NCBI GenBank assembly: GCA_000002435.2
Contig: CM018791.1
Reading direction: 5' to 3' (one strand)
From: Giardia intestinalis
Lineage: Eukaryota
DNA length: 64,000 nt
Shown one piece after another: positions 5,794 to 61,047 of the stretch. The translations under genes and the position numbers were made by a program. Positions within the stretch are counted from its first letter, which is position 1. Each line of letters opens with the position of its first letter. The notes under the pieces are model-generated. The model had not been told where the DNA came from, made no database searches, and was given only the letters and a program-made list of their open reading frames with translations.

Positions 5794-5992
5794 TGACAAT
5801 TGATAGAATTATTACAGGGTGGCTGTTGACCTAAGTTATAGTTCTGTCCTTTAAGCTTGTTGTTTTTAGAGATACTTATGAACCTGGGTATCAGTTAATC
5901 AATAAGTGAATGTTGAAGGATAGAATCGTCAGTAGCCTTTTTTCTAAAATTCGTCGGTATCCAGGCATCATTCACACACACGGTACTTCCTT

Positions 5993-7012: not shown

Positions 7013-7021
7013 TCACTGCTT

Positions 7022-11704: not shown

Positions 11705-12420
11705 CTAGTGCTATCTTCGTTAATAAACCGGTCGATACAAGTAATTAGGACACGAGGCCGAGAAAATTTTAAGATCTTTTTACGATTTTTTAAAATTAAA
11801 AGTGATGTTGATCTAATTATTGTTACAACACACTGGACGGTGCAGTTTATGCAATGATTAAGGAGATCCGTGTACTAGTAAGTGCAATCTAATATCAATT
11901 TACCTATAATTGTCTTCTTCATATCCACATCTTGGCACTTGTGCTCTTTATTAGACTGAGGGCGTCTCTATCAGGTCTATAGTTATCTCTTGTCTGGCCC
12001 TGAGCATCTTAGCTTCACATCCAAGTAGTCGAATTTAACTAGACGTTTAGTTTTCGATATGCGATGTACACAACGCAGATCCTTCTGTTCGGGGATCAAA
12101 GAGTCATGAGAAAACCACAATCGGATCCGCTAAATCTCTCTATTGACCGGTTTGACGGACTTTTTGTCACAGGCAAAATACACATTATCTGTTGGCCTTA
12201 AGAGATTGAGCTAGGACAAATGAAACAGCTGAAATTGCTGGACGACACTGAAAGAGGATATCTTGCAGCTGTATTGAGTGCTTCTCTTTAACTGCTTATA
12301 TAATTAGAAGTAAACAATGACAATCACTAGCTGGTCACTACTGAATTGTAGCCCCGTTGGAAGTAAAGCAGTAAGCCGAGCATTGAGCACAGTATCAAAA
12401 ACTTTTGCAAATTTCATCAA

Positions 12421-13500: not shown

Positions 13501-13521
13501 TTTAGTTCAGAAAAATCGGAG

Positions 13522-15213
13522 ATGGGTGACACTCTCGGACTGGCTCTCGGGCGTGTGGGACGCTTCTTGTCACAACATTACTGGAACTTTGAGGCCCTAG
13601 CTGGGCTGACCGCTGATGGCCGTCCGCTAGAGCACGCCTTATCTTGCTTTTACGAAACCATGAATGGTGCTGTATCTAGGTCTATCTCCGTGGACTATAA
13701 AGACAACTATGGCCCTTTACCATGGGAAGGCATCTATAGCTTAGCAGACGGCTCTGCACTAGAGGACGTTTATGGCATCACAGGTCCGGATCAAGTTATT
13801 GATTCTAGAGCCGAGCTAAGCCTTTATCATCGGTATCTCAAGAATGGGGATGAAGAGGAAAGTCGAGCCTTGTATGCAGACGCTGGGGCCAAGTTCTTTC
13901 ATGCGTGGAAGCGTTTTAACAAGCTCTCGTCGCCAACGATGACACCAGCAGGAATCCCTGGGATTTCCGACGTTCGCATCAATTTCCATAAGACAGAAAG
14001 GTTTGCAACAGACTTCGCTGCACCAAACTCAACGTCTCCTTTTGCGCTTGAGCTTCCTAGAGCAAATTTGAGTCAATCAGAGGTCCCCTCAGATTACTTC
14101 AACGAGGCATCTACCACGGGGAATACGCACGCTATCCTATCGTCTATTTATGATATTGCTATGAAACAGTTGGAAAAGTGTGATAGGCTGGACTGTTTGG
14201 TCCTGTTCTTGGCATCGGATACTCACTGGGGAACTGTCCTCACAGATATCCTGGATGAGATCTTGCCAGAAGTGCCGCGCACATCAGCTTTACTCTATGA
14301 TATCATCGATTATAAGTCTCCAAATGAGCCGTCACCCCTTGTTTGTCCGAATCCTCTTCTGGCTTCTAAACGCAGAAAATGCTCTCAGATGTCACTGTGG
14401 CACAACATAGCTGACCGTCTAAGCTCATATGCCCTACTACCTCTTTCATATGCAAGCATCAGCAACTATTTTCGGAATGCATGCGCATCCGAAGTGGACA
14501 TAGAGACACCAGGTGCTGCTGAAAATGGGCTACGGGGTAATAGGCAGGCATGTTTAACTGATGCTAGTGCTGTTATGTCCTTGGCCGTTCATAGTTTTGT
14601 GCGTCAGGCTCGGACACACACGTATCGGCTCAGTAATGTGGTGGACGGACTTGTCCCAGTTTCTTATGGTAATATCTTGGCAACCGGTTTGAATATTTCT
14701 CTCACTGGGGGCTTCTATGAGCACACACTAGATCTCAGTGGGTTGGTAGCTGCTTATCTCCAAAGCCCGATAGACTCCTCTTTCGCTGCTGCGCGGAGCT
14801 TCTGCATAGACCCTCTGGATCTCAGCGCAAAACCACGTGGGTGGGTAAACTCCTACGTCAAGCAGTATGCCGAGCTCTTCCGACAGCCCATTATACGAAA
14901 TAGTCGCGGTCTTCTATTGAGAGGGCCTGTTCTTCAACTTCCAGACGCCTTTCCCCACATTTTCACTCAGCGCTGTGGACTCTCATACAGAACAGAGCTG
15001 CCGATAGCAGTGGAACTACGCAACACGCCGTACTATTATGCAAATCTGTGTGCCACTGAGAAGTTAATACAAGGGAGATCATCTTTTCGTGACGATAACT
15101 TGGAGCTAGAGGATACTCTTCAGTACCTCTGTGTCCTGAAGGATGTTTATAAACCATCGAGACACCTTGCTGGAATACAGATAAGCGACGACCGCAGCGG
15201 TAGTGAGCAATAG
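13522..15213 (+). CDS. Hypothetical protein (563 aa)
   Basis: Long open frame starting 21 bp after the SLX1 stop. Non-repetitive. No domain recognised. Confidence 0.55.
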   Translation: MGDTLGLALGRVGRFLSQHYWNFEALAGLTADGRPLEHALSCFYETMNGAVSRSISVDYKDNYGPLPWEGIYSLADGSALEDVYGITGPDQVIDSRAELSLYHRYLKNGDEEESRALYADAGAKFFHAWKRFNKLSSPTMTPAGIPGISDVRINFHKTERFATDFAAPNSTSPFALELPRANLSQSEVPSDYFNEASTTGNTHAILSSIYDIAMKQLEKCDRLDCLVLFLASDTHWGTVLTDILDEILPEVPRTSALLYDIIDYKSPNEPSPLVCPNPLLASKRRKCSQMSLWHNIADRLSSYALLPLSYASISNYFRNACASEVDIETPGAAENGLRGNRQACLTDASAVMSLAVHSFVRQARTHTYRLSNVVDGLVPVSYGNILATGLNISLTGGFYEHTLDLSGLVAAYLQSPIDSSFAAARSFCIDPLDLSAKPRGWVNSYVKQYAELFRQPIIRNSRGLLLRGPVLQLPDAFPHIFTQRCGLSYRTELPIAVELRNTPYYYANLCATEKLIQGRSSFRDDNLELEDTLQYLCVLKDVYKPSRHLAGIQISDDRSGSEQ

Positions 15214-46556: not shown

Positions 46557-47285
46557 TCACGTGCCGTGCTCTTGGTGATATTCCTCTATCTCTTGGTTCG
46601 TCAGTAAAGGAATGCTCGCCCCTCCAAGGGTCATTGAAAAAGACGAAAGGTCAATCATCGCCCTGTACATCGAGAGCGCGCTCATCCCAATAAGCGTGTC
46701 GCAGACAGAGTCCAGGACTGCAAAGTTCATCGGTAAGAAAATATCTCCACACTGCATCAGGCAAATGTGGATTCTTCCGAGCATCCGAGTCGAGCCCACC
46801 CCAATCGCGCGCCCCGCATAACGGGTATCTATGTGGCCCTCTAGCCCACACGCACGCGCTGTTTTGCGGCCCATGGAGTTGAACTCTGCGCCCGTGTCGA
46901 TAACGCAGACGACCGGAGTCCCATTGATGGAGACGCGGATGTACAGAGATGGAACCGCGTTGACTAGGAGTCCTGGATAGTACTTGTTGATCTCAATGAG
47001 GTCCTGGTACACCTGCTCCGGGACCCCCGTCTGTTCCTGGGAAGAGGTGTCCCCGGATATACTGTAGAGCAGTGTAGACTTTTCCGGGATGCTTGAAAGC
47101 ACGGTCTCATCCCGGAGAACGCGGCCCTTGAACCAGAGAGCTGCCCCGGGGCCCGGTGGCGCGAACCCGTACTCTGACGCCAGGTGTGCGAGCAGCTGCC
47201 CCGCGCGTGCCCGCACATCGACAAGGGCCTCCACAGCAACGTCTTCTGCGAGCCGGACGTGATAAAGGAGCGCGGGAGGGGCCAT
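46557..47285 (-). CDS. DDI1: Ddi1-like protein: N-terminal ubiquitin-like domain plus retropepsin-type aspartyl protease
   Basis: Protease signature 'VVCVIDTGAEFNSM' (D-T-G-A) plus 'LIGMSAL'. The ORF-track start at 47567 overlaps the peroxiredoxin gene in another frame; the first ATG at 47285 gives 'MAPPALLYHVRLAED...' with a ubiquitin-like fold. Confidence 0.75.
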   Translation of the reverse strand: MAPPALLYHVRLAEDVAVEALVDVRARAGQLLAHLASEYGFAPPGPGAALWFKGRVLRDETVLSSIPEKSTLLYSISGDTSSQEQTGVPEQVYQDLIEINKYYPGLLVNAVPSLYIRVSINGTPVVCVIDTGAEFNSMGRKTARACGLEGHIDTRYAGRAIGVGSTRMLGRIHICLMQCGDIFLPMNFAVLDSVCDTLIGMSALSMYRAMIDLSSFSMTLGGASIPLLTNQEIEEYHQEHGT

Positions 47286-47317
47286 GGCGGTGTCCGAAAA
47301 ATACGAAAGGGACAGAA

Positions 47318-47324
47318 ATTCACT
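47318..47324 (-). terminator. Putative polyadenylation signal AGTGAAT for the peroxiredoxin gene
   Basis: The minus strand reads 'TAAgtggtgtAGTGAATttc'. It lies 8 nt after the stop at 47332-47334. Confidence 0.5.
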
Positions 47325-47331
47325 ACACCAC

Positions 47332-47937
47332 TTACTTCTTGAACGTCTTGGAGAAGTACTCCTTCTTCTTCTCGGGGTCGGGGATGATAGTGTCGTTCTT
47401 CTCGGGGGTCCAGCCGCACGGGATGACGCCGCCGGTTTTATCAGCGTACTGGAAGGCCTGGACCAGGCGCATGGCCTCCTCCACCGAGCGACCCACTGGA
47501 AGATCGTTGATCGTGACGTGGCGAACGACGCCCTTGTCAGAGACGATGAACATCCCGCGGAGCGCAATGCCGGCGTCCTCGACCAGAACGCCGAAGTCGC
47601 GGGCCATCTTGTGGTTCGTGTCGGCGAAGAGGTCGCACTTGCACGTCCCGATGCCGCCCTCGTTCTGGCCCTGGAGGCACCAGGCGTAGTGGCTGTAGAC
47701 GGAGTCCGTCGAGCCGATGATGATCTCCGCGTTGCACTTCTTCTTCAGCTGCTCAGCCAGATTCGAGAAGTGGATGATCTCCGAGGGGCAGACGAAGGTG
47801 AAGTCGAGCGGGTAGAAGAAGACAATCAGGTACTTGCCCTTGTAGTCAGAGAGCTTGCGCTTGGCGAACTTAAGCTCAGGGGTGACGACGTCGACCTCGA
47901 AGTCGGGGCAGGGCGTGCCGGGGATGGGGACGGGCAT
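47332..47937 (-). CDS. Typical 2-Cys peroxiredoxin (thioredoxin peroxidase)
   Basis: Peroxidatic Cys motif 'FTFVCPSEI'. Resolving Cys 'VIPCGWTP'. The first ATG at 47937 is preceded by the initiator 'aaaaattaaaATG'. The ORF-track N-terminal extension (from 48030) is out of context. Confidence 0.9.
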   Translation of the reverse strand: MPVPIPGTPCPDFEVDVVTPELKFAKRKLSDYKGKYLIVFFYPLDFTFVCPSEIIHFSNLAEQLKKKCNAEIIIGSTDSVYSHYAWCLQGQNEGGIGTCKCDLFADTNHKMARDFGVLVEDAGIALRGMFIVSDKGVVRHVTINDLPVGRSVEEAMRLVQAFQYADKTGGVIPCGWTPEKNDTIIPDPEKKKEYFSKTFKK

Positions 47938-48185
47938 TTTAATTTTTACCGAGTCCTGTGATATATTGTAATAACCAGAACTCGAGCTTGTGGAAATAGA
48001 AAAAAGATGACACCACCGGCAGTCTGGCAAAAGTCTAAGACTTTGCTATCCAACAAATCACCAAAAGAAGGACACTCTTTTTGACTGATAGTTTTTTCAA
48101 ATGAGGAAGGAGGTTGGTCTGTGTGCGACTGCTCTCACTCTGCTGGCGACTTTCGTCCCAGTCTATAGCACATGTATTTTAAAAA

Positions 48186-51100
48186 ATGTTCGGCTATATT
48201 ACTTGTGCAACCACAGGCATCGTGTTAGATCGCCTTAAGACCGCAACGCATGTCGAGCTGCACTTCTGCATTCGCTCTTGCACAGACCCACCTAACATAA
48301 TGGCCACCTCGCCCACGGTCTTCACTCCGCTCCAGCTCAAGGACAAGCGCAAGGGCGTATACACACCAAAGATCACTGATATCACGCTGCCCATACCCCT
48401 ACTAAGCGATCTGGATGCACACGAGCTTTGTATCTCCGTTCTTCTTGCAGAGGTTGCTAAGGATGGCACCACTGCATGTGCAGACCTAGTGCATGTGTGC
48501 TCCAGAGCCACACTTGCAGAGATCCTGGCTGGCCGAACTGTAGAAGAAACAGCTCCTTTCAGCAGCCCAGCTGCTTCACCCTGCACAGACCATATTAAAC
48601 TGTCGCTCTCCTACCGCAAGCCGCTGAGAAAGGCAAACAGTGCAGCGTACGAGTGTCTACGGCTCGACACGCTCTTTATTCAATTAGCCGATATTACGCT
48701 TCCCCTCAGCAAGAGAAGCTATCTAGATGAGCAGCGGCTGTGTCTCCGTGTGTGTACCCAGACGTATGCATCGGAGTTCCCACTAGCTGAGCTTCCCAGG
48801 GATCACTCTACTAAGAGGAGCTACCAGCTGGCCTCTCCGGTACCCATTTCCATTCCCTACTCTCCTGTGATAACCTTTCAGGTTGTCTTTTTGTATAGCG
48901 TAACAGTCTCTGAAACATTTTTCCGGCTGAACGGTCTCCAGGTAGGATCGCCCTCTGCCAATTCCCACAGCTTTTGTGATTACGTGCCTATCTTTCAGTG
49001 CTCAATCAGCAGCAAGAAGAATTTATATAAGTATCAGTCTTTTGGTGTTCCGCTCTCCCTCTGCTTTCCCCCGAGTCTTATATCCTCTGACTTGGTGTCC
49101 TTTTATGACGTCATCTGTGCGTCCCTTCAATTGGCTGCAGACTCCACTCACAAGAAGGCTCCCCGGAGCCTCACAGACCTCTTAGGACACCTTAAGGAGG
49201 CTGTTATCCCACACATTTTTGAGGGCATCTTTCTGCGCGGTGAAGACATAGCCGATGTCTTTTCTCCTTACAGATCTACGATCACTCTCACAAACCATTC
49301 AAAGTCTGACTCTGCCCGCTTCAAGGCTTACGAGAAGATTCTTCAGTATGCAGGTCTCACTGACACACTGCTGGCAGCTGTCGGAAAGGACTGGACAGAT
49401 CTGGCCGTGAGAGTGGGGACAGAGGTTGGTTTTTCACAGAATGTTGCACAGAACAAGATTCTGTTCGTCGCCACTTTTCTTTTGGACATGTTTGAGCCAT
49501 ACTCTTCGTCTGCAGCAAAGCGCAACGATACCATGTACCCTGACTCCACATCAGTATCGACGCCAGGCCTCTCCGAGTCATCTTCTTTCCAACGCTTTGA
49601 GTCCCTTAATTGTGCGTCGCGGGCCCGTGACATGCTCTATGCGTTTTCGTCTAAGCGGCAGGATAAAGATGCGGCAGCCTCGTGTCTCACGATTCTTCCA
49701 ATTGAGTTTTCCTTAGCAAATGCATTAGTATCCAATAAGGTGTGCATTTACACCATCAACTTTTCCGAAGATGGCACAGATGCCAACCAAACCTTTCATG
49801 ACGCTGCCCCCATAGTCATGTCAAAGCCCGAGCTATCTGGGAGCAATCGGGGTCTCTGGCAGTTCACTTTGGAGGAAAGAAGAGATAAGGCGCAGATGAT
49901 AGCTGTCGGGCCTGTACTTAGCGCTACTCAATCGAAGGTGTCCATAAACCGCGTTCTGCTAGGATGTAAGAACAACGCAGAGCTCACCTTTGCTAACTAT
50001 CTTTGGATGCTGCCGCAAGTCCTCTTTCTTCCCGATTCTGTTTCCTCCCAGCAGATGATCCGCGATCGCGTAACAGCGTTCGAAAAGTGCGTCCTTATAG
50101 CATGTCTCTATGACTTTGAGACCGGCGCACTCCTTGCCCGTGGAAGCCTACGATTAAAGAATGTCACTGATACCTTTATTTCAGCCGCAACATCTGATCT
50201 GGACGTCGAAATAAAGCTACGGTGGTTCTATGAACAGGAGTTTTCATCATCCGTTAAGGGGGTCGAGGACACGGTTACATTTTTAGCAAGTTGCTACGGG
50301 TTTCTGAAGGAGTTGGAGCCTGCTGGTTCTCCGCATCAATCTACTCATACCTCAGCGAATGTATCCATCTGTGGCAAGAACAGTGCATGCCTGGTCACCG
50401 CTGAAAACTCTAATAGACCGACGTCTGCGCCTTCCTCTATCCACGCAGAGGCTGCCAACTGTTCGCTGGTGCGCGAAAATTCTCCAGACTGCCCCGAAGA
50501 CTTAAGTACTATTGAGTATGTTCGAGCCCAAGCGGAACCCCGACAATTCACAGAGCGGAGCGAGATAGTGAGCCAGGATGACAAGGGACTACGCACTCCT
50601 CGACTCTTATCAGGAAAGGAGATAGAGATTATTGACGGAACTATTACGTTTCAGCTTGCACCCAGTCAGAGGCAAAGTACATCAGGACCGGTCTGTGGCA
50701 TCCCTAACAACACGAAAGACGAGATAGGTGTACTCAAACAATTAATACATACGTTGCGGAAGGACCTAGATCGGCTCACTCCCAAAACCTTTAGACAAGC
50801 GGTTGCTGCAAGCCCCTCGACATACGCTGGCCTAGAGCATCCGATTTCGGAGGATCTGCGACGGAAAGTGGAGGTCTCCACCGGCTTGGTGATGCAAGAG
50901 GAAGGCACCACATATGAATTATGTCAAACAATAGCTGAAAAGTTGGATCGAAATATCCTAGCATATCTGTTAGTGGATATGGTCAAGCAGAATGTCCAGC
51001 TAAGTAAGGAGCTTGATGGTACCAGAGACAAGATCGATGTTTTGGAGAGCGCCTGTACTACAAATGGTGCGGCGCTATCTAAATTGAAGGCCCTAGTACT

Positions 51101-51491
51101 GGAGCAGGAGCAACTACTTCAATATATGGAAGCGCAAAGCAAAAAGTCGATCCATACGTCAACAGAGTCAGCAGAAAGGCTTATTGCCGTTGAAAAGGAG
51201 AATGCACGGCTCACTGAAATCTTACGGGCCGTTACAGCTTCTTTGGGTAAGGATGGTGCTGCCAAGGTCATCTCCATCTCAAGGAACCCCGCAGGGTATA
51301 CCCGAGCACAGTCATCTCCATCGCTAGATGACGGAAGAAGTGGTGTGTTGCTTAGCGTTAAGCTACCGCCCGGAAGATTGCCTCCGTTGAGTCCTGACCC
51401 AGAAGCCTTGTCTCCGCATGCTGCCAGCAAAGCTTCTAACGTTGCGAAAAGAAAGAGTCCCAGCCAGGCCGTCATCCTTTCGCGGTCCTGA
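48186..51491 (+). CDS. Hypothetical large protein (1101 aa)
   Basis: Uninterrupted 1101-codon frame. Initiator 'attttaaaaaATG'. Coiled-coil near the C-terminus. No domain recognised. Confidence 0.6.
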   Translation: MFGYITCATTGIVLDRLKTATHVELHFCIRSCTDPPNIMATSPTVFTPLQLKDKRKGVYTPKITDITLPIPLLSDLDAHELCISVLLAEVAKDGTTACADLVHVCSRATLAEILAGRTVEETAPFSSPAASPCTDHIKLSLSYRKPLRKANSAAYECLRLDTLFIQLADITLPLSKRSYLDEQRLCLRVCTQTYASEFPLAELPRDHSTKRSYQLASPVPISIPYSPVITFQVVFLYSVTVSETFFRLNGLQVGSPSANSHSFCDYVPIFQCSISSKKNLYKYQSFGVPLSLCFPPSLISSDLVSFYDVICASLQLAADSTHKKAPRSLTDLLGHLKEAVIPHIFEGIFLRGEDIADVFSPYRSTITLTNHSKSDSARFKAYEKILQYAGLTDTLLAAVGKDWTDLAVRVGTEVGFSQNVAQNKILFVATFLLDMFEPYSSSAAKRNDTMYPDSTSVSTPGLSESSSFQRFESLNCASRARDMLYAFSSKRQDKDAAASCLTILPIEFSLANALVSNKVCIYTINFSEDGTDANQTFHDAAPIVMSKPELSGSNRGLWQFTLEERRDKAQMIAVGPVLSATQSKVSINRVLLGCKNNAELTFANYLWMLPQVLFLPDSVSSQQMIRDRVTAFEKCVLIACLYDFETGALLARGSLRLKNVTDTFISAATSDLDVEIKLRWFYEQEFSSSVKGVEDTVTFLASCYGFLKELEPAGSPHQSTHTSANVSICGKNSACLVTAENSNRPTSAPSSIHAEAANCSLVRENSPDCPEDLSTIEYVRAQAEPRQFTERSEIVSQDDKGLRTPRLLSGKEIEIIDGTITFQLAPSQRQSTSGPVCGIPNNTKDEIGVLKQLIHTLRKDLDRLTPKTFRQAVAASPSTYAGLEHPISEDLRRKVEVSTGLVMQEEGTTYELCQTIAEKLDRNILAYLLVDMVKQNVQLSKELDGTRDKIDVLESACTTNGAALSKLKALVLEQEQLLQYMEAQSKKSIHTSTESAERLIAVEKENARLTEILRAVTASLGKDGAAKVISISRNPAGYTRAQSSPSLDDGRSGVLLSVKLPPGRLPPLSPDPEALSPHAASKASNVAKRKSPSQAVILSRS

Positions 51492-51547
51492 AAATGGCGT
51501 CCACACGCTCTGCAATGATGTTCGATTAAATATGTAAGTAAAACTTT

Positions 51548-53347
51548 ATGTCTAATAGGTTTACCACCCAGACGGTGTTGGACTCCGTCCTCAAGAGCCG
51601 GGGCCTGTCCAGCTCAGACACGGAAATGCATGAACTCCCTGCTAGGTGGTCAGCAGTGGCGTCACACCTGTCTTCTTTTTTGCAGTGCGAAAATAACCCG
51701 CTGGAGTGCTACACAGCGATGTATGAGGCGGTCATAAGCCAGCCATGTCTCTCCTTCGAGCAGGACTGCCAGTGTGGGTCGTGCTCAGAGCGCGTGACGG
51801 AGTTCTTCCATTTGGGACCTTGTTCTCACAAGCTCTGTAAAGCCTGCCTCAGAAAGATGTTTGACCAACTCAATGATGAATGTCTGGTCTGCAATGAACC
51901 TATTAGAGAGCTCGCCTTCTGCAAACAGCCTGGCTCCATGCCTCCTCCACCGGCGCTTGTGCCGCCGCCTCTTGCTCTTCCTACCAAGGCCACCCCTGCC
52001 CCTGCACCCGCCTGCGAAGAGTGCCCTGTCTTTGCTTCTATTCTTAAAAAGAATGGTCTGCCACCAGACACGTCCGGAATTGTCCATGGATACAAGAAAA
52101 TCAAACAGATTAATTTACTGGAAGATGACTACATATCGTCTCCTCCTACGGGACAGACCCTTATTCCGGAGGAGGACTTGATATACCTCAGGGACTATAT
52201 GAAGTTTCAGTTCCTACACTTCTTCGAGGAAGTCGATGCCAGCGAGACTATCTTTTGCGCATGGAAGGGCGGCGACGCGGCTGAGCACCAACTCGAGTGT
52301 CCTCTCCGCGAAGATACGTGCAAGAATAAGGCACTTGGTTGCAGCTTTATGCAGCCATACATCATTGTAGCGTATCACGGGATAAACTGCGAGAATATAT
52401 GCCTCTACGAAAGTCAGCCGTGCCCTCTATGCAATAAGACAGTACTGAACAAGGACATGTACACCCATGAGGTCACTTGCTCTAAGAAGCTCATAGAAGA
52501 GCATAAGGAGAAGGTCAAGTCTTCGCAGAAAGAGTACATCGCTGGGGCTCAAGCTACTTTCGCTGCTGAGGCCTCCAAGGAAAACTCTCCTATGAAGAGC
52601 GCGTCTCCCAACAATCCGAATAGCAATCCAAGCATCGTCTCTCCTGAGAACAGGTCCGATGATGACATCAAGGGTATCACGATTAGGGATGCCTGCGAAA
52701 ACATGAACGTGCTGGGAGAGATGTATTGCGACCTTGTGACAGCTGCTCGCCCAGATATATACTCTAGCACCTCCAGCGCTGTCAACTCTTCTACTGACGT
52801 AAGGGGAAGCAGGGAGCTTTTACGCGATCCAACGGAGATTGTTGTGATAGGGCCTGCTGAGCTCTCACCTGAACAGGTCAAAGACATAAAAAGAACCAAG
52901 TCTCCCAAGTCTCCGAAGAGGTCTGGTGCATCGGAAAAGAACGATAACTCGAGGAAAGAAAGGAAGGGAACATCAGAGGCGCGTGTCTTATCTTACGAGG
53001 TCTGCTCCACTGGGTCTGGCCATCCGTTTGTGGTCTACAAGATCGAGCTCCCAAGCCAGGACGGCGGAGAGAGCGTAGTCATCCATAAGCGAATGAAGGA
53101 GATCAAGGCGTTCCACAAGCGCCTGCAGCGCAACTTTCCAAGTATCACGCTGCCCAAGCTTCCGCAGGACAGGCCTTGGGCACTCGGAGGGAACAAGCTT
53201 AAGTTTGTTCAGGAGCGCTCCAGACTTTTGGAGGCATATTGTGGAGACATCAATCACAATGCGATGATATATAAATCGAGGATTTATAAAGACTATATTA
53301 ACGAGCAATGCGCTTATGTGCCGATCACTTATGCTCTTAAAGAGTAG
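51548..53347 (+). CDS. RING-finger plus TRAF-type zinc-finger protein with a C-terminal PX domain
   Basis: RING-HC 'CGSC..(11)..CSHKLCKAC..(11)..CLVC'. Cys/His-rich TRAF-like finger 'CPLREDTCKNKALGCSF...CPLCNKTV...HEVTC'. C-terminal PX 'VVYKIELPSQDGGESVVIHKRMKEIKAFHKRLQRNFPSITLPKLPQDRPWALGGNKLKFVQERSRLLEAY'. Confidence 0.7.
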   Translation: MSNRFTTQTVLDSVLKSRGLSSSDTEMHELPARWSAVASHLSSFLQCENNPLECYTAMYEAVISQPCLSFEQDCQCGSCSERVTEFFHLGPCSHKLCKACLRKMFDQLNDECLVCNEPIRELAFCKQPGSMPPPPALVPPPLALPTKATPAPAPACEECPVFASILKKNGLPPDTSGIVHGYKKIKQINLLEDDYISSPPTGQTLIPEEDLIYLRDYMKFQFLHFFEEVDASETIFCAWKGGDAAEHQLECPLREDTCKNKALGCSFMQPYIIVAYHGINCENICLYESQPCPLCNKTVLNKDMYTHEVTCSKKLIEEHKEKVKSSQKEYIAGAQATFAAEASKENSPMKSASPNNPNSNPSIVSPENRSDDDIKGITIRDACENMNVLGEMYCDLVTAARPDIYSSTSSAVNSSTDVRGSRELLRDPTEIVVIGPAELSPEQVKDIKRTKSPKSPKRSGASEKNDNSRKERKGTSEARVLSYEVCSTGSGHPFVVYKIELPSQDGGESVVIHKRMKEIKAFHKRLQRNFPSITLPKLPQDRPWALGGNKLKFVQERSRLLEAYCGDINHNAMIYKSRIYKDYINEQCAYVPITYALKE

Positions 53348-53426
53348 GGTGGCCGCTCGGCTGTGGAAAGAATATTCAATTTGACTGGCGGAAGACCGGC
53401 AGTAAATTACTTTAAAAACAATCGCC

Positions 53427-55535
53427 ATGGAGGAGTTTTTTGGGTTTTCAGACGCGCCGGTTGCTCCTGGCCACGTCTCCGAGGAGGCTCTGTTCTTTGG
53501 CTTTGATGACGCCTCCGCTAACCAGCCGCAGCCCCCCGTCTCCATTCCATTTCCAGTTATCAACCAAGTCGCGACCATCCCAAGGTTTCAGGAGTTCCAA
53601 GAGTTCCAGGAGTATGACTCGCCAGAGCTTCGGGCAGCCAGGCAACCCAAGTTCCTGGATCCAGCACTATTTGTGGGCCCTGGGAGAGAGGACGTCATTC
53701 ATGATGTGGTGATAGATGAGGCAAAGTACGACTTCGGCTACGACCTTGACTACCTGCGAGAAACCACAGATGAGATGAAGACCGAAGAGGACGAGGAGGA
53801 CATAATAAGTAGGCTTCCCTACGGCTTTTCCTCCAACTACACATACAAGGACGATATGGCAGATCTTATGCGTAGCAGCCCTGTGAAAGACATTGTTCTC
53901 CCCCGGGTTGGTGTCACTGTAGAGTGCTCCGACAGTGACATGGAAGCAGAATTCAACCGTCTGCAAGCTATAGACTTCAACGAGAAGCGCAAGGACATAG
54001 AACAGATGCTTCGCATTCGTAGAGAGCAGGAGCACCAGAGAAGGCAAGAGGAAGAGCAAGAACGACTGCGGCAAGAGGCCCTTAAAGCTCAGAGCTCAGT
54101 TCCATCCCGGATCCCCTCTATTCCGGCCGCCGCCCCATCTGCCACTATTGCCTCTGATAGAGCAGTCGGACCTGCTGCCGTTCCAAGCCTTCCTCCCCTG
54201 TCTCAGCCAATGGTTGACGTTGCTCCGCAGCCAGAGCCCCAGCCAATTATGGATCTCCTGATAGCTCCAAAGGCAGTGGAGGCGGTGTATGCCCCGTTAC
54301 AAGCTACCCCTGTACAGCCTATCCATACCCAATCTTCCATTTTAGTGCCATCAGCTCCACCAGCGGCTACTCTGGCCCCTCAAGTATGCTCTATTGAGCA
54401 ACCTCCCTCAGAGGATCCTCAGCTAGAGGAAATGTTCGGATTCCAGTCACAACCCGATATTAGTTACTCCCCAGAAGTCAAGGATCTAGATAAGATAGAG
54501 CCAGACTTGACCGCAGATCCTGCCACAAATCCGGTTATCGTGGACCAGCCTGTCTCAAAGTCGTGGAGCGCAAGAGGATCGATACAGCAGCAGCTAGACA
54601 ATCTACAGAGCGAAATAAAGCAACTAGAGCAAGACTCCATGTTTTCTAAAGAAGATAGAAAGCGGAGCAGACACGCAGAAGCCCGTAAATATCTCGAAAC
54701 CAGAACATATACAGACAACTACGACGTTTTCAGACCGTCGCACCATCTACAGAAGTACTATGCAGCGAAGAAGCCAAAACCAAAGCCAAAGGAAACCATT
54801 TATTCCCCATACTCAGAGACGGAGCTATCGAACCAGCGCATGCAAGTGCGAGCAGAGCTGGAGGCTCAGAAGCACAAAGAGCAGCGGGAGCGCAACTACT
54901 ACGAGAAAATTGAGATCAAAAGGCTAACAGCCATGTACTCCAAGCTCGAATCTGAATTAACCGTCAAAGCCATCAGTGAGGAGCTTGCACAAGAAAAACG
55001 TCAGGAATTTGAAAAGTACTTCAAGAGCGCGTCCCTCCTTGAAAAGAGCTCTGACATGTACACCAGCACACACGATGATAAGACCATACGCATACAGGTA
55101 TCTGAGCATAACGCTTTGCATCTCCCCCGGTCCCTCTTCTTCACCCCTGATGGGAAGTATAAAAACTACGTTAGATACCTGGACTATAGGAAGGTTTTCG
55201 ACCGCTTCACGCACACGCAGGTCCTTATGTTCATATTCGCGGTGTCCTCGCAGGAGCGAAAGTTGAAGTGCATTTCCAAGACTTACGAGGACTTTCATGT
55301 CCTTCACAAGGAGCTTGTGGGGGCCTTCGGGTACTCAGCAGTACCTGGGCTTCCCTCCTTCCGATCCATGAACATGGGTGGCGGTAGACATGAGGTCATT
55401 CATGACACTCAAAAGAGACTAACCAAGTACCTGACTGAAATCAACAACGTCCAGGCTCTGCGCACATCCGCCATCTACAGGAGCTTCCTCAAGCACCAGG
55501 ACCTCAACTTTTTCCAGGGGATGCATCGCCACTAG
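53427..55535 (+). CDS. PX-domain protein (C-terminal PX) with N-terminal acidic FGF motifs and a coiled-coil
   Basis: Starts 'MEEFFGFSDAP...EEALFFGFDDAS'. Later 'LEEMFGFQSQPD'. C-terminal PX 'TYEDFHVLHKELVGAFGYSAVPGLPSFRSM...VIHDTQKRLTKYLTEI'. Confidence 0.7.
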   Translation: MEEFFGFSDAPVAPGHVSEEALFFGFDDASANQPQPPVSIPFPVINQVATIPRFQEFQEFQEYDSPELRAARQPKFLDPALFVGPGREDVIHDVVIDEAKYDFGYDLDYLRETTDEMKTEEDEEDIISRLPYGFSSNYTYKDDMADLMRSSPVKDIVLPRVGVTVECSDSDMEAEFNRLQAIDFNEKRKDIEQMLRIRREQEHQRRQEEEQERLRQEALKAQSSVPSRIPSIPAAAPSATIASDRAVGPAAVPSLPPLSQPMVDVAPQPEPQPIMDLLIAPKAVEAVYAPLQATPVQPIHTQSSILVPSAPPAATLAPQVCSIEQPPSEDPQLEEMFGFQSQPDISYSPEVKDLDKIEPDLTADPATNPVIVDQPVSKSWSARGSIQQQLDNLQSEIKQLEQDSMFSKEDRKRSRHAEARKYLETRTYTDNYDVFRPSHHLQKYYAAKKPKPKPKETIYSPYSETELSNQRMQVRAELEAQKHKEQRERNYYEKIEIKRLTAMYSKLESELTVKAISEELAQEKRQEFEKYFKSASLLEKSSDMYTSTHDDKTIRIQVSEHNALHLPRSLFFTPDGKYKNYVRYLDYRKVFDRFTHTQVLMFIFAVSSQERKLKCISKTYEDFHVLHKELVGAFGYSAVPGLPSFRSMNMGGGRHEVIHDTQKRLTKYLTEINNVQALRTSAIYRSFLKHQDLNFFQGMHRH

Positions 55536-55611: not shown

Positions 55612-58600
55612 ATGGAGGACATTGCCTACACCGACGGATACGCTGCGCAGTACGGAGATAATTATGCATATGATGGGTATGGCTATGGTGGTGACCTGGC
55701 TGTGGGAGATTACAATCCGTACGGAACGGACTATGGTTATGATGCAGGAGGCTACGACTATGGTGCCGGGTACGGTGGGTATGGGAATCAAGAGACTGGA
55801 TATGGCGATCAGACATATGGATATGGTGAGCCTGCTGAGCAACCGCAAGACAGTTTATCGCTTAAGCTGGACGAGCCGAAGCCGTTTACTGAGCAAGACG
55901 ATGGGAGGTCCCTCGTCGTCCGTACTGATGCGGCGTCTGTGTCCATGGATCCTTTTAGTGCGCCCATAGATACAGTGACAGAGCCCATAGGTTCACAGAC
56001 GCACACGAGCTCCGCTTTTCCACCTGTCTCTCAGGACTTGCTGAACTCTATCAGGGTCCAGCAAGAGACTAGTGGAAACCTGAGTAAGTCTCCAAGCAAA
56101 ATCTCAAGCAGGCCTGCCTCTGCTAGACTTGACGAGCTTGATAAGGTAATCGAAGAAGATGCAGAACAGCTTAATAGGGAGGCCAAAACAGATACTCACG
56201 TTACTGGTGCTGCCCCCGATACTAGCGATATGTTTGGCTTTACTGACCAACCGGCGGCACCAACAGCTACCGAAGAGCCTGTCGCAACTGCTGGTGACGA
56301 CATGTTTGGATTTGGGCTAGAAAGTGACGCGCACGATGCAACGGTTCAGCCCCCAGTTGAAGATGCAGGGCCTGCTCTACCTGATAAAGAAGCTCCCTCC
56401 ACTGAGGCCGAAGACGATATGTTTGGCTTCGCCACATCTCCTCAGGAGACCATAGCCAGCCCTCCAGCAGGCTCCACCGCCCCTGCTGCTGAGCCTGTTG
56501 ACGACATGTTTGGCTTCACCGATCCTGCCGTCGAATCAGCGGCTACTGCAGAGCCAGGAACAATGGAGGGCGATGATATGTTTGGATTTGGCCCCTCAGA
56601 AAGCACACCTAAAGATCCTGACACTGATGCATCTGCAGTAGCTAAGGATGTAACGGTGGACGCTCAAGATGCTGCCGATGATATGTTCGGTTTTGATGGA
56701 GCGGGCTCCCCTGCAGAGGCTCCTGCACAATCAACCGAAGCAGTAGCAAGCCCAGTTGCTGACTTGGAGACGGACAGCATGTTTGGCTTTGATTCTCCGC
56801 CAGCCCCAGCAGATAATACTACTACTGTGCCTGTGGATGATTCGGCGGATGACCTGTTCGGATTTGGGCCTTCCACTTTAGATGCACAAGGTGAGCCCGC
56901 CCAAGATGCTCAGCCAGATATTCAAGATGTGGCACAAGTCTCCGCTGACAGCATGTTTGGCTTTGACTTGCCAGCTGATGCCTCGGCAACTGTGGAGCCA
57001 TCAACTACCGGCCTTGCTACTGAGAAGCCAGAGGATTCTCCTGTCGATGACATGTTCGGCTTTTCTCCAAACGAAGCAGCAGCTACAGCCAAGTCAGATG
57101 AGGATCAAGAGATAACGCCGGTGAACACCAAGACTTTAGACGAACCATTGTCAGTAGCAAATGATTACACCCAACCAACAGCTGGGCCCTCAGATGACAT
57201 GTTCGGCTTTGGAAACAGCGCAGATCTTCCTCAAACAGATTCTGTACCCCACTCTGGAGCCACGGCTGATAGCATGTTTGGATTTGACTCTGTACCAGCA
57301 ACAGGGGCCTCGGTAGAACCACCAACAGAGACGCCAGAGCTTCACGACGCATCTCAGACACAACCTACTTTGGACATGCCAACAATTCCAGAGCACATCC
57401 CAACTATAGAGGATAACCAAACGGACCTGTCACATGAGAGTCAAAATGAGAGTCAAGTTGCAAGTGAAGAGTCTGATCAGCTAAGAGAGACCAATGAGAC
57501 GCTGGAAGGAGAGGAAATGAATAAGGAACTGGCACAAGAGCCCGCTGTAGAGGATATGTTTGGCTTTGGGGATGCATCAGCGCCAGTGGAGGATTCCTCA
57601 ACAGAAAAGGCCACTGAAAGCCACCCAACTGAGCCACCTAATTTAGCAGATCTTCCACCTCCTGTGTCTGCATCATCACTGCTTCCCGTGCAGACACTTG
57701 AGTCTGCGAAGCAATCCGCAAGAGCTGCAACTACCCCAGTGGCCGATATGGCCATTGATATAGATTCTATGATCTCGGCTGCACTAGTTCCACAGCAACC
57801 CTCCCCCGCTCCTGAACAGAAGGTCGAGGACCAAGTTCTTGACGAATCCTCGCCTAACGTGATAACTGCAGAGCTTCCTCCCATTGTTGTGAAGGGATCT
57901 TTAGAAGAGGCCAACGACAAGTCTGCCGCAGAGTCGCAACATGAACCAGTAGAGCTCTCGGAGGACCGTGACCTCAGTAAAGATATCGAGCTGGTTGCTC
58001 AAGATCCTCTACCGGCCGAGGAGGATACGCAGGATATTTTTGTTGAGCCAGCTGTGCCAGTTGAAGCTCTAGAAAGGTTGGCGATCAGCGAAACGTTCAT
58101 CAAGCTCCAGGAGGAGCTTCAATTTACATACCTGATGCCAGAGCCTAACCGCGAAGAACTAGACAAGCTCCAGATGACTGATCATGAGCAGCAGCTTATT
58201 CAACTTAAGGACGAAGCGGAGCGGCTACAGAGAGAGAATAAGGTGCTCGCAGGCAGAAGTGCGGCTCCCAGGCATCTCCACCCTAACGAGTTTGATAGCA
58301 AATCTATCTCAGTTAGCTTCTTCGAGGGTCTTCTGAATGAGCCCACCCACAGTGATGGCATATCCCTAACGACTGGGGAAGAGCTTCGGCTCTTGGCGAT
58401 TCTGGAGCAGGGAGACTACGAAGCACTTGATGCTCTTCACGGCATGTCTCCAGAGGAGCTTCAGTTAATGGAGCAACGAGAACGCGAGTTCAATTTGAAG
58501 CTCAAGGAACTCACCGACCGCCGAGACGAGCTGTTGTACAAGGATGATACGGAGGCTTTAAAACTCATTGAGGAAGAGATCTGGGCCTTTGTAGACGCTG

Positions 58601-61047
58601 AGGAAGAAAAGAAAATGCGCATCCAAGCGGCAGACGACCTTTTGAAAAAGCGTGCTCAGGAGGAAGAGGACCGACGTCGTGCTGAGATAGAAGCAAAGAT
58701 CAAGGAGGAGCAGGATCGTGTTGCAGAGGAGCGCCGACTCCAGGAAGAGATGATAGCGCTCCAAAAGAAGCAGCAGCAAGAGTATGCAGAGCAGGAGACT
58801 AGGAAAGCAGATCTTCTCCGTGAGGCCATGGAAAAGGAGCAACTAGAGCGAATTGAGGAGGAGCAGCGCATAAAAGCAGAGGCACGACGACGCCTAATCG
58901 ACGATCTGGAGGCCACAGCTGAACGCGCAGCCGCCGAGGACCGGATACGGGTTAAGGCTGAGTTGGAAGAAATGGCCAGGATCAAAAAGGAACTGGAGGA
59001 GGCTGCCCGGACGGCCAGCGAAGAGAAGCGAAAGCTTCTTCTACAACAGAAGGAGCAATTGGAAAGAGAAATGGCCGAGACAGCAAGACGACACGAGGAA
59101 GACGTGGCGCGTAGGCACAAGGAGCTGCAAACTCTTCATGAGGAGCGGCGGAAGATGCGCGAACAACGCTTAGCCAGCTCAGAACCGATGGATGAGCTTC
59201 TTCGCGAAGATGGCAACGATGCCTCTGCCGATCCGTTCTCATATGCGTCTCTGGACATTGAGCGCAGAATCAGGGAAATGAAAGCCCAGTTAGAGAAGGA
59301 GATGACCGAAAAGATGGCCCTAGAGCACGCTGACCTCAATGCTCTAGAGCAGGAGTTGGCTGCTAAGAAGCTGTCGACCTTACAAGCAGAACGACTCTTA
59401 AGCACGGCTGCAAGCGATACAGTGGCACGGCTCGATAACGAGGATCGTCTCTTTAACGAAGCAATGGATGCCAAGCGCCAGGAGCTGCTTCTTTTGAAAG
59501 AACAGTATGGACTCGTGCGTCACCAGAACGAAAGTCAGCGCGCCTTGCACCTAGAGGAGCAGAGAAAGGCTAAGAAGTTAGCGAGGTTAGTCGAACAAGT
59601 TGCCGAGCTAGCCGAGAAGAAGCACAATTTAGAAAGAAAGATTGCCCATGGAAACAAAGAGTTTCACAAGAAAGAGAGCAAGCTGGTGGCTTCTAACAGC
59701 AAAGGCGCACTCAAAGCGTTGAGAAAGGAGCACGCTAAGGAGCACGAGGCGTTGGAGACGCAGCTCTCTAGCGTCTCAGAGCAGTTACGCAGAGCAAAGA
59801 AGCAGCTCAAGGTACTTAACCCCCAGGGAGAGACTTCTGATATGGACCGATCTCTTAGTGTCAAAGACTATTTGCGCTCCACAGATCGGAGTGAGAAAGA
59901 GCAAGAAGTGTCCGCTGCAGATAAGGACCATTCCCAGCCGCGTCTGTCCGTCTTCGAGGGAGGCTCTCTTGGCCAACCTTCGTTGGTAAGCGGCCATGGA
60001 ATTGGAACAGCGATGTCAACAGGTGTGGACCACGGAGATGGAGGGAGAAAGCAACATGCATCCAGTGACTTGCCTGTAGCGCTGCAGAAGCTGAGAGAGG
60101 AGCACGCTCGCAGGCTTGAGAAGATTGAGCAGCGACGAGCAGCCTTTGCTTCGGAAAGGGAGCAGCTTCAAGCCCAGGCACACGCGCTCGAGGCTCAGCT
60201 TTCCAAGCCCGTCAACGTTCCTGATTCTAAGCTACGCACCAGAGAGCAGCGCAAGCAGATCATTTTCGCAGAGATGAATAGAATGGAAAAGCTGTCGAAG
60301 GCACACATGGTTGAAGTTAAGCCTCAGATCCCAGAGAAAACAATCGATGACATTCTTAACGAACGCCGCAAACGACACGGGGAGGAGCGTGAGCAACTAA
60401 AGAACATGGCAGTGCGCTTTACATCTGCGTACGATCGGCATTCCCGGGTCTCTGTTAACATGGACAGCAGCGACGACGAATGGAATGACCTAGCTGCACG
60501 GACCTCCTCACGTTATGCAGATATTTCTGCTAAGCCACGCTCGATGCAGGCGCAGGTCCGCCAATTTGCATCTGATCGGATAGATCCTGCCTTCAATAGC
60601 TACATCGAGGCCCCTGTGCGACCTGGCTATGAGTCCTCTCTCCTCTCGTATGTGAAGGTGAGCTCTGACCCTACTACGTGCCACCCGACCAAGTTTGTGG
60701 CTCGGCTCACTGCACACACCTGGTGCATTGAGCAGAAGAGCAAGCCGTATGTGGTCTATACGTTTACAATCAGCACAGAGAAGGGTGTCTTTGAAGTAGC
60801 GAAGCGCTTCTCTGAGCTGCGTGAGCTGGACAAGGCGCTCCGTCGCGTTTTCCCAACAGTTACTTTGCCCAAGTATCCGTCGTCTATGGGAGGGAAGTTT
60901 ACTGATGAACAACTGGAGGAGCGGAAGCGGCTCCTTGGGCGCTATATGAGCCAGCTGAATCAGATCGCGGTCATTAGAACAAGCCAGGTGTACAAGGAGT
61001 TTATACAGATGAAGGTGAGACACGATATCCTTGTATATCACCGGTGA
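55612..61047 (+). CDS. Giant PX-domain protein (1811 aa): a 13-copy acidic 'DDMFGF' motif array, then a long E/R/K-rich coiled-coil, then a C-terminal PX
   Basis: N-terminal Y/G-rich segment. 13 copies of (D/E)(D/S)(M/L)FGF(G/D/T/S) at irregular spacing of about 25-35 aa. A coiled-coil of about 650 aa. C-terminal PX 'YVVYTFTISTEKGVFEVAKRFSELRELDKALRRVFPTVTLPKYPSSMGGKFTDEQLEERKRLLGRYM'. Confidence 0.8.
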   Translation: MEDIAYTDGYAAQYGDNYAYDGYGYGGDLAVGDYNPYGTDYGYDAGGYDYGAGYGGYGNQETGYGDQTYGYGEPAEQPQDSLSLKLDEPKPFTEQDDGRSLVVRTDAASVSMDPFSAPIDTVTEPIGSQTHTSSAFPPVSQDLLNSIRVQQETSGNLSKSPSKISSRPASARLDELDKVIEEDAEQLNREAKTDTHVTGAAPDTSDMFGFTDQPAAPTATEEPVATAGDDMFGFGLESDAHDATVQPPVEDAGPALPDKEAPSTEAEDDMFGFATSPQETIASPPAGSTAPAAEPVDDMFGFTDPAVESAATAEPGTMEGDDMFGFGPSESTPKDPDTDASAVAKDVTVDAQDAADDMFGFDGAGSPAEAPAQSTEAVASPVADLETDSMFGFDSPPAPADNTTTVPVDDSADDLFGFGPSTLDAQGEPAQDAQPDIQDVAQVSADSMFGFDLPADASATVEPSTTGLATEKPEDSPVDDMFGFSPNEAAATAKSDEDQEITPVNTKTLDEPLSVANDYTQPTAGPSDDMFGFGNSADLPQTDSVPHSGATADSMFGFDSVPATGASVEPPTETPELHDASQTQPTLDMPTIPEHIPTIEDNQTDLSHESQNESQVASEESDQLRETNETLEGEEMNKELAQEPAVEDMFGFGDASAPVEDSSTEKATESHPTEPPNLADLPPPVSASSLLPVQTLESAKQSARAATTPVADMAIDIDSMISAALVPQQPSPAPEQKVEDQVLDESSPNVITAELPPIVVKGSLEEANDKSAAESQHEPVELSEDRDLSKDIELVAQDPLPAEEDTQDIFVEPAVPVEALERLAISETFIKLQEELQFTYLMPEPNREELDKLQMTDHEQQLIQLKDEAERLQRENKVLAGRSAAPRHLHPNEFDSKSISVSFFEGLLNEPTHSDGISLTTGEELRLLAILEQGDYEALDALHGMSPEELQLMEQREREFNLKLKELTDRRDELLYKDDTEALKLIEEEIWAFVDAEEEKKMRIQAADDLLKKRAQEEEDRRRAEIEAKIKEEQDRVAEERRLQEEMIALQKKQQQEYAEQETRKADLLREAMEKEQLERIEEEQRIKAEARRRLIDDLEATAERAAAEDRIRVKAELEEMARIKKELEEAARTASEEKRKLLLQQKEQLEREMAETARRHEEDVARRHKELQTLHEERRKMREQRLASSEPMDELLREDGNDASADPFSYASLDIERRIREMKAQLEKEMTEKMALEHADLNALEQELAAKKLSTLQAERLLSTAASDTVARLDNEDRLFNEAMDAKRQELLLLKEQYGLVRHQNESQRALHLEEQRKAKKLARLVEQVAELAEKKHNLERKIAHGNKEFHKKESKLVASNSKGALKALRKEHAKEHEALETQLSSVSEQLRRAKKQLKVLNPQGETSDMDRSLSVKDYLRSTDRSEKEQEVSAADKDHSQPRLSVFEGGSLGQPSLVSGHGIGTAMSTGVDHGDGGRKQHASSDLPVALQKLREEHARRLEKIEQRRAAFASEREQLQAQAHALEAQLSKPVNVPDSKLRTREQRKQIIFAEMNRMEKLSKAHMVEVKPQIPEKTIDDILNERRKRHGEEREQLKNMAVRFTSAYDRHSRVSVNMDSSDDEWNDLAARTSSRYADISAKPRSMQAQVRQFASDRIDPAFNSYIEAPVRPGYESSLLSYVKVSSDPTTCHPTKFVARLTAHTWCIEQKSKPYVVYTFTISTEKGVFEVAKRFSELRELDKALRRVFPTVTLPKYPSSMGGKFTDEQLEERKRLLGRYMSQLNQIAVIRTSQVYKEFIQMKVRHDILVYHR
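56227..57570 (+). repeat. In-frame array of 13 degenerate repeats encoding the short linear motif D-D-M-F-G-F (DNA core 'gayrryatgttyggmtty') separated by divergent acidic spacers
   Basis: Recurring 'gatatgtttggcttt', 'gacgacatgtttggattt', 'gatgatatgttcggtttt', 'gacagcatgtttggcttt' and similar at about 56227, 56299, 56416, 56500, 56572, 56672, 56776, 56848, 56950, 57043, 57193, 57270 and 57553. Confidence 0.7.

Follow-up and report, generated by a model that had tools for sequence, protein, structure and literature searches.

Analysis of a 64,000-nucleotide stretch of the Giardia intestinalis genome (assembly GCA_000002435.2, contig CM018791.1; the whole stretch is called the window here) supports a TRAF-like RING and zinc-finger module in the N-terminal half of GlPXD3, a protein with a PX domain at its C-terminus. 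The predicted order along the protein is N-terminal helices, a C3HC4 RING, an insert of ~110 residues, three C2HC fingers, a helical or disordered spacer and the PX domain. This arrangement would represent a cytosolic protein of TRAF-like build with PX in place of the receptor-binding MATH domain. An earlier note on this DNA, made from the letters alone, had proposed such a fusion and had suggested that it acts as a phosphoinositide-targeted ubiquitin ligase (E3).

Identity and relatives of GlPXD3

51548..53347, plus strand: complete GlPXD3 open reading frame (ORF), 599 amino acids, ATG to TAG (ORF list and exact sequence look-up)

The window is DNA of Giardia lamblia (intestinalis) WB, and the Giardia origin implied by the earlier note holds. 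By exact sequence look-up, the ORF is GL50803_16596 (XP_001710118.1, UniRef100_A8B341) of G. intestinalis ATCC 50803, and the database name for A8B341 is 'PX domain-containing protein'. Cernikova et al. (2020, PLoS Pathog, PMC7058353) call it GlPXD3, and it is labelled 'sorting nexin-22/24' elsewhere (PMC7985675). The published GlPXD3 ORF cloning primer matches positions 51551-51574 with zero mismatch, and the published PX construct, residues 443-587, is identical to the ORF of the window (PMC7058353). GL50803_16596 is already known and has been partly characterized as GlPXD3.

Few proteins share the N-terminal half. A word-indexed search returned only the orthologues of four G. intestinalis assemblages, which are 69-100% identical. 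When 1.84 billion representatives were searched exhaustively with a profile, 17 proteins were returned, and only two others carry the N-terminal half, namely TNJ28570.1 of G. muris (P0005) and a 750-residue protein from the JGI metagenome 3300010163 (P0007), which is the sole relative from outside Giardia. Each of the two combines a RING and three C2HC fingers with a helical spacer and a PX domain at the C-terminus. The BLASTP alignment of GlPXD3 with P0007 is collinear, with 39% identity in the PX domain (expectation value E 6e-21) and E 6e-8 for residues 69-311. Two metagenome contig scans for further family members found none, and a published comparative study reports GlPXD3 orthologues in G. 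muris only.

The recurrence of this architecture bears on whether two separate genes, one for a RING finger and one for PX, were wrongly joined in this ORF, as the ~160-residue poorly conserved linker between the halves might suggest. However, the ORF is uninterrupted, G. muris, the four G. intestinalis assemblages and a metagenomic contig all carry the same fusion, and the full-length protein with a hemagglutinin (HA) tag was recovered as bait and localized to peripheral vacuoles. We give an artefact practically no credence.

RING finger

51764..51910, plus strand: RING-HC (C3HC4) finger, residues 73-121, ligands C76, C79, C92, H94, C97, C100, C112 and C115

The RING-HC strings pointed out in the earlier note are present (C76GSC79, C92SH94KLC97KAC100 and C112LVC115), and their spacing over residues 76-115 is that of a C3HC4 RING (C-x2-C-x12-C-x1-H-x2-C-x2-C-x11-C-x2-C). 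The general cross-brace pattern C-x2-C-x9-39-C-x1-3-H-x2-3-C-x2-C-x4-48-C-x2-C was matched by 0 of 20,000 shuffles of GlPXD3, and GlPXD3 was its sole match in the six-frame translation of the window. Cys and His residues number 12 in residues 67-125, 13 in residues 237-320 and 2 in residues 321-480.

The Pfam RING models matched the single GlPXD3 sequence with E-values of 2.4e-5 to 6e-3, which are significant although the scores lie below the cut-offs. The earlier note had held that its reading would fall if the Cys/His spacing failed RING and TRAF profile searches. Because single-sequence Pfam alone would have gone half the way to that outcome, we built a family profile from six members. The RING profile retrieved 196 RING chains from all PDB sequences, with a best E of 2.4e-7. 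The matches include TRAF6, RNF8, RNF4 and RNF168; they also take in Hakai and the non-E3 RINGs MAT1 and BARD1. The family RING aligned with TRAF6-family RINGs by hhalign at 97.4% (E 1.3e-11), with twelve TRAF sequences as the reference alignment. Furthermore, the predicted N-terminal fold of GlPXD3 matches RING E3s, and the fold searches gave RING matches only. In the six-sequence alignment, 7 of the 8 RING ligands are invariant; H94 is Glu in P0007.

TRAF-type zinc fingers

52256..52300, plus strand: TRAF-type zinc finger 1, degenerate, residues 237-251; C237, H247 and C251, one Cys ligand short
52319..52402, plus strand: TRAF-type zinc finger 2, residues 258-285; C258, C265, H277 and C281 or C285
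52421..52480, plus strand: TRAF-type or UBZ-like zinc finger 3, residues 292-311; C292, C295, H307 and C311 (C-x2-C-x11-H-x3-C)

Finger 1 keeps the TRAF signature 'C-x-W-x-G', and hhalign placed FCAWKG..EHQLEC of GlPXD3 on the first finger (ZF1) of TRAF6 (consensus C.W.GeL..le.Hl..C). The corresponding finger of P0007 is complete (C-x3-C-x7-H-x4-C). Fingers 2 and 3 are complete in GlPXD3; the double C2HC pattern that they form in residues 258-311, tested as tandem C-x2-6-C-x11-12-H-x3-7-C, occurred in 1 of 20,000 shuffles. In finger 2, the six-sequence alignment shows that only the Cys aligned to C285 is kept in G. muris and P0007, and C281 varies.

Profile comparisons assigned the fingers to the TRAF type, as the earlier note had done by eye. 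The top three Pfam matches of residues 231-321 were zf-TRAF, zf-TRAF_2 and TRAFD1-XIAF1_ZnF, all at ~14 bits. Across the family, zf-TRAF was the commonest match (5 of 6 members, E 0.0091 in the best), followed by zf-TRAF_2 (4 of 6). The top three PDB matches of the six-member finger profile were also TRAF-type, namely FLN29/TRAFD1 (E 3.6e-4), FBXO30 (E 3.2e-3) and TRAF6 (E 6.3e-3), with all Cys/His columns aligned in each. By hhalign, the family fingers matched ZF1-3 of TRAF6 collinearly over 96 columns at 93.4% (E 2.5e-7). In the control, the finger profile against the Cys-rich RING profile of the same family gave 2.9%. The profile check that the earlier note had called for was therefore survived narrowly: single-sequence Pfam stayed below the cut-offs, and the six-member profiles were significant and specific.

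The RING and finger ligands are all invariant across the four assemblage orthologues. In the six-sequence alignment, where overall identity is ~23-32%, all ligands are invariant save H94 and C281. The share of columns invariant among the four assemblages is 80% in the fingers, 75% in the middle region, 74% in the N-terminal helices, 69% in the PX domain, 61% in the RING and 30-38% in the linkers, which makes the finger block the most conserved part of GlPXD3, above PX.

These results allowed us to weigh whether the Cys/His pattern arose by chance in a low-complexity or disordered N-terminus, so that GlPXD3 would be effectively PX-only. The missed single-sequence cut-offs for RING and zf-TRAF could be read that way, as could the first AlphaFold2 (AF2) run and a review that reports no other domains (PMC6115752). 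That run, on full-length GlPXD3 with four close orthologues, gave a mean predicted local distance difference test score (pLDDT) of 30 and was unusable. However, shuffling reproduced the two patterns 0 and 1 times in 20,000, and the ligands are held at low overall identity. The matches by profile and by hhalign are both significant and specific, the fold predicted for the N-terminus agrees with RING E3s, and conservation is higher in the finger block than in PX. We consider a chance pattern very improbable and effectively refuted.

PX domain and published cell biology

52982..53344, plus strand: PX domain, residues 479-599 (Pfam match 509-586)

The C-terminal PX domain of the earlier note was borne out. 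Pfam PF00787 matched residues 509-586 at 36.4 bits against a curated cut-off of 21.6 (E 7.7e-9), and the orthologues scored 35-45 bits. The PDB matches were the PX domains of SNX27 and CISK. The canonical PI(3)P (phosphatidylinositol 3-phosphate) site of PX domains comprises an Arg-Tyr after beta3, a PxxP loop and an Arg in helix 2. In the alignment to SNX27 and CISK, K514-R515-M516 of GlPXD3 stands opposite KRY/RRY, with the Arg kept and the Tyr replaced by Met. LPKLPQDRPW stands opposite the PxxP loop, and R557 and R559 stand opposite the RRR of SNX27.

Residues 443-587 fused to maltose-binding protein preferred PI(3)P on lipid arrays and bound phosphatidylinositol 5-phosphate more weakly (PMC7058353). 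Tagged full-length GlPXD3 lay coat-like on the cytoplasmic side of peripheral vacuoles, as a continuous, fenestrated, 'hive-like' coat around them (PMC7058353). It co-purified with clathrin heavy chain, AP2, dynamin and dynamin-like protein, and also with a ZipA-annotated protein and NEK kinases (PMC7058353). The bait construct spanned the full-length ORF from the first ATG and carried an HA tag at its N-terminus; 895 spectra of the bait were recovered, and it was found at peripheral vacuoles. The same interactome contains, at low counts, ubiquitin-linked proteins and proteins linked to the endosomal sorting complex required for transport: a BRO1-domain protein, Vps4b, a ubiquitin hydrolase, E1, UPL-1 and another RING protein. 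A 2025 preprint again found GlPXD3 with ARF-system baits at peripheral endocytic compartments.

An older study (2011, PMC3044749) found GL50803_16596 in a mitosome-enriched proteomic fraction and then reported the tagged protein as cytosolic, unlike the later vacuole coat. The discrepancy may stem from the position of the tag or from the level of expression.

Ubiquitin ligase or scaffold

We consider a membrane-restricted RING-type E3 the most likely role of GlPXD3, as a hypothesis from homology. Besides the RING and TRAF-type matches, it draws on the shared architecture in G. muris and P0007, on the high conservation of the finger block and on the low-count ubiquitin-linked and sorting-complex-linked proteins of the published interactome. 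Binding of the PX domain to PI(3)P, which published experiments document, holds GlPXD3 on the cytoplasmic face of peripheral vacuoles, and the flexible spacer could present the RING and zinc-finger module near the membrane. By homology, the RING would recruit a charged ubiquitin-conjugating enzyme (E2) and direct ubiquitin onto GlPXD3 itself, the endocytic machinery or membrane cargo. The fingers may have the supporting part that ZF1 plays for the RING of TRAF6, or may bind ubiquitin or partner proteins. Finger 3 of P0007 passes the threshold of Pfam zf_UBZ (27.4 bits against 25.6), which fits the ubiquitin-binding option.

Several observations weigh against an E3 of this kind. First, the module is weak by single-sequence criteria: zf-C3HC4_3 scored 24.5 against a cut-off of 27, zf-RING_5 24.3 against 27.9 and zf-C3HC4 16.9 against 21, and zf-TRAF (PF02176) reached 13.9-14.4 bits against 27. 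In addition, finger 1 is one ligand short in Giardia. The usable AF2 model, made from a six-sequence N-terminal alignment, is moderately confident at a mean pLDDT of 67; within it, ZF3 reached 85-89, and ZF1 and ZF2 were poorly modelled at 37-65. Second, the residues expected to meet an E2 are unusual. The Ile/Leu pair of C-x-I-C-L RINGs contacts the E2, and a basic linchpin follows the last Cys; RINGs without a hydrophobic residue at the contact position, such as BARD1 and MAT1, often do not bind E2s. GlPXD3 has C76-G-S78-C79-S80 opposite the C-P-I-C-L of TRAFs, in which the Ile is invariant among the 12 TRAF sequences, and the positions aligned to the TRAF6 Ile/Leu are K/S in G. muris and N/G in P0007. 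The linchpin position after C115 is variable (N, K, D or G), and in P0007 Glu replaces the RING His ligand. Finally, the published GlPXD3 interactome contains no E2, and the published list of Giardia E2s names no Ubc13 orthologue. A TRAF6-style Ubc13 mechanism is unsupported and was set aside because of that list. We put the probability that GlPXD3 is a membrane-restricted RING-type E3 at about 0.5 because of Ser78 and Ser80, the Glu of P0007, the short ZF1 and the lack of an E2 and of Ubc13 in the published data.

Many of these observations would suit a different role, in which the RING and fingers are non-catalytic zinc modules and GlPXD3 is a coat or scaffold protein that self-associates and binds partners or ubiquitin without recruiting an E2. 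Possible partners are the ZipA-like Gl16811, NEK pseudokinases and ankyrin '21.1' proteins. The polar residues at the E2-contact-aligned positions in all three lineages speak for such a scaffold, as do the His to Glu change in P0007, the zf_UBZ match of its finger 3 and the presence of the non-E3 RINGs MAT1 and BARD1 among the profile matches. A continuous fenestrated coat is also unlike a transient enzyme (PMC7058353), and the interactome, which has no E2, is dominated by stoichiometric-looking partners. On the other side, the RING is otherwise canonical. It keeps hydrophobic residues at M104, four positions after the sixth ligand (L or I in relatives), and at L113 and V114, which lie between the seventh and eighth ligands. 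An Ile at the first E2-contact position is also missing from some active RINGs, Hakai for one, and ubiquitin-system proteins do appear, at low counts, in the interactome. A non-catalytic scaffold is a serious alternative, to which we give somewhat less than even odds.

We also considered a combination of the two roles. RING dimerization together with helix oligomerization has been proposed for TRAF6 networks. If GlPXD3 were a TRAF-like lattice former, RING dimers, helix oligomers and PX-PI(3)P anchoring could build the fenestrated coat, which would itself be an active ubiquitin-ligase surface. We regard this as unlikely and speculative.

Comparison with known proteins

The closest structural parallel for the N-terminal half is in the TRAFs. 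TRAF6 and its relatives have an N-terminal C3HC4 RING, tandem C2HC fingers and a helical segment, in the same order as GlPXD3. GlPXD3 differs from TRAF6 in the short ZF1, in the Ser residues opposite the E2-contact Ile and Leu and in the lack of a listed Giardia Ubc13, and further differences concern the layout. First, TRAFs end in a MATH/TRAF-C domain, whereas the C-terminus of GlPXD3 is PX, and no Pfam match to MATH was found in GlPXD3 at E<=1. Second, the RING and ZF1 of TRAF6 are contiguous and form one rigid unit, whereas GlPXD3 has ~110 residues inserted between them. Third, TRAFs have a trimerizing coiled coil, whereas the helical segment of GlPXD3 is short and conserved in neither length nor sequence. 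Membership of the TRAF family was ruled out because GlPXD3 has no MATH domain; the protein is TRAF-like in its N-terminal half only.

A RING or F-box combined with TRAF-type fingers and no MATH domain is found in TRAFD1/FLN29, FBXO30, XAF1, TRAF7, RNF151 and SIAH. TRAFD1/FLN29 and FBXO30 are the best PDB profile matches of the GlPXD3 finger block, and the sub-threshold Pfam matches of the family fingers are zf-TRAF, zf-TRAF_2, TRAFD1-XIAF1_ZnF and Sina_ZnF. Proteins of this group show that the RING or finger module can be joined to many C-terminal domains. To our knowledge, none of the six proteins named has a PX or other lipid-binding domain. Because the similarity is limited to the fingers, it implies no orthology between GlPXD3 and these proteins.

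The closest functional parallel is provided by the FYVE-RING ligases, yeast Pib1 and mammalian RFFL/CARP2, in which a PI(3)P-binding module puts a RING on endosomal or vacuolar membranes. Like them, GlPXD3 combines a PI(3)P-binding module with a RING. It differs in using PX rather than FYVE, in having the RING at the N-terminus, which reverses the order, and in its TRAF-type fingers. The combination of PX, RING and zf-TRAF looks like a way of bringing a RING to PI(3)P membranes that arose independently of FYVE-RING and parallel to it. A cross-eukaryote survey of 2010 listed zf-C3HC4 and zf-TRAF among FYVE-associated domains and listed neither RING nor zf-TRAF among PX-associated domains (PMC2837644).

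Compared with sorting nexins and PX-only proteins (SNX27, SNX11 and the SNX22/24 type), the PX domain of GlPXD3 is most similar to the sorting-nexin PX domains. SNX22 and SNX24 are small and PX-only, and GlPXD3 adds a conserved 340-residue RING and finger half. A review of 2018 described six Giardia PX proteins as 'PX domain-only', with no other special sequences (PMC6115752). For GlPXD3 this label fails, given the conserved RING and finger half. The word RING has zero occurrences in Cernikova et al. 2020 (PMC7058353), GL50803_16596 is absent from the text and supplement of a 2020 inventory of ~70 Giardia RING proteins based on hidden Markov models, and the searchable literature makes no mention of a RING and TRAF-type finger module in GlPXD3. 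The new element is the TRAF-like RING and finger half predicted for a protein so far regarded as PX-only; a putative PX-RING-zfTRAF architecture comes with it.

Other regions and flanking sequence

51520..51547, plus strand: AT-rich upstream region, adjoining the start codon on its 5' side; endogenous promoter end of the published HA-GlPXD3 construct
51548..51745, plus strand: N-terminal helical region, residues 1-66, three predicted helices, 74% of columns invariant in the four assemblages
51923..52012, plus strand: proline-rich variable linker, residues 126-155, 30% of columns invariant, pLDDT <50, ~90 residues in G. muris
52013..52255, plus strand: conserved middle region, residues 156-236, 75% of columns invariant; insert between RING and fingers relative to TRAF6
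52481..52981, plus strand: helix followed by low-complexity linker, residues 312-478, 32-38% of columns invariant
53401..53407, plus strand: AGTAAAT, candidate polyadenylation signal, 54 nucleotides past the GlPXD3 stop codon (direct reading)

The reverse complement of the published primer pE_HA_16596_prom_Avr_as, GTTCGATTAAATATGTAAGTAAAACTTTATG, equals window positions 51520-51550 by direct reading. The putative assignment of AGTAAAT at 53401-53407 follows AGTRAAY, which we take to be the Giardia polyadenylation signal.

Residues 1-66 have no Pfam match. The family profile of residues 154-238 found no PDB relative of the middle block. A ubiquitin-like segment at residues 161-197 (52028-52138), corresponding to the alpha1-beta3-beta4 part of ubiquitin, was considered and rejected. 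Its resemblance is that of 'GLPPD...' to the 'GIPPD...' of ubiquitin in a single-sequence match to tetra-ubiquitin (E 0.3). The likeness was taken as chance because the family profile, which has no PDB match there, finds no ubiquitin. A helix runs from residue 301 to 334 or 339 in the two AF2 models of GlPXD3. The counterparts of residues 312-478 in G. muris and P0007 are long E/R/K-rich helical segments.

P0007 is encoded at positions 446-2698 of a 4.7-kb contig (L001) with a guanine and cytosine content of ~60%, and it adjoins a SEP-domain gene. Its spacer is roughly 190 residues long and extremely E/R/K-rich. Another sequence, P0006 (182 amino acids, from a read-archive assembly), matches GlPXD3 residues ~45-167 and then continues in the +1 frame ('MVCHQTRPELSMD...'), which is the overlapping window ORF 51861-52181 on the plus strand. 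The frame change is likeliest an insertion or deletion or an assembly error, not biology.

Neighbouring genes

GlPXD3 is followed on the plus strand by two further PX genes, 53427-55535 and 55612-61047, which match the GlPXD1 and GlPXD2 PX sequences of PMC7058353. The earlier note had contrasted the GlPXD3 fusion with FGF motifs in its two tandem neighbours, and the counts agree: the repeated acidic motif '(D/E)(D/E)MFGF' occurs 3 times in GlPXD1, 13 times in GlPXD2 and 0 times in GlPXD3. The repeats resemble short linear interaction motifs that may bind adaptors or clathrin. Similar motifs are carried by GlPXD4 (P0010). The PX domains of GlPXD1, GlPXD2 and GlPXD3 share 25-33% pairwise identity, which is consistent with old tandem paralogues.

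The tandem PX cluster is shared with G. muris, where the GlPXD3 orthologue likewise follows the upstream gene. This upstream gene, at 48186-51491 on the plus strand of the window, is a 1101-residue ORF without a Pfam domain, directly upstream of GlPXD3. Its syntenic counterpart in G. muris (CM016926.1, L002, positions 4898-7996) is 25% identical over 1049 residues (E 3e-72). At positions 11622-14789 of the same G. muris contig, the orthologues of GlPXD1 and GlPXD2 are separated by an ankyrin-repeat protein kinase gene; the G. lamblia window lacks it at that place, and the PX cluster has therefore been interrupted or rearranged in one lineage.

Further upstream, a Ddi1-like aspartyl protease gene lies at 46557-47567 on the minus strand (Pfam Asp_protease, E 1.6e-23). 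The mechanical start of this ORF overlaps a peroxiredoxin gene on the same strand at 47332-48030 (AhpC-TSA, E 2.5e-30). The protease itself probably starts at the internal Met of 'MAPPALLYH...', where a segment of ubiquitin-like appearance begins. Proteins of the Ddi1 type act as ubiquitin receptors; we see no reason to link this gene with GlPXD3.

Implications

Among the markers of the unusual endocytic organelles of Giardia, GlPXD3 is one of the best. No other protein has so far been described that coats the peripheral vacuole as a whole, and GlPXD3 has been regarded as PX-only. With a predicted RING, it would be a missed addition to the published Giardia RING inventory. If the unlikely lattice reading were true, the coat would represent a new membrane-coat type, made from an E3 scaffold and marking cargo or machinery, in an organism without canonical clathrin-coated vesicle formation. 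The RING and finger module gives a candidate mechanism for GlPXD3 at the vacuole, which may be membrane-restricted ubiquitination or RING/finger-driven coat assembly.

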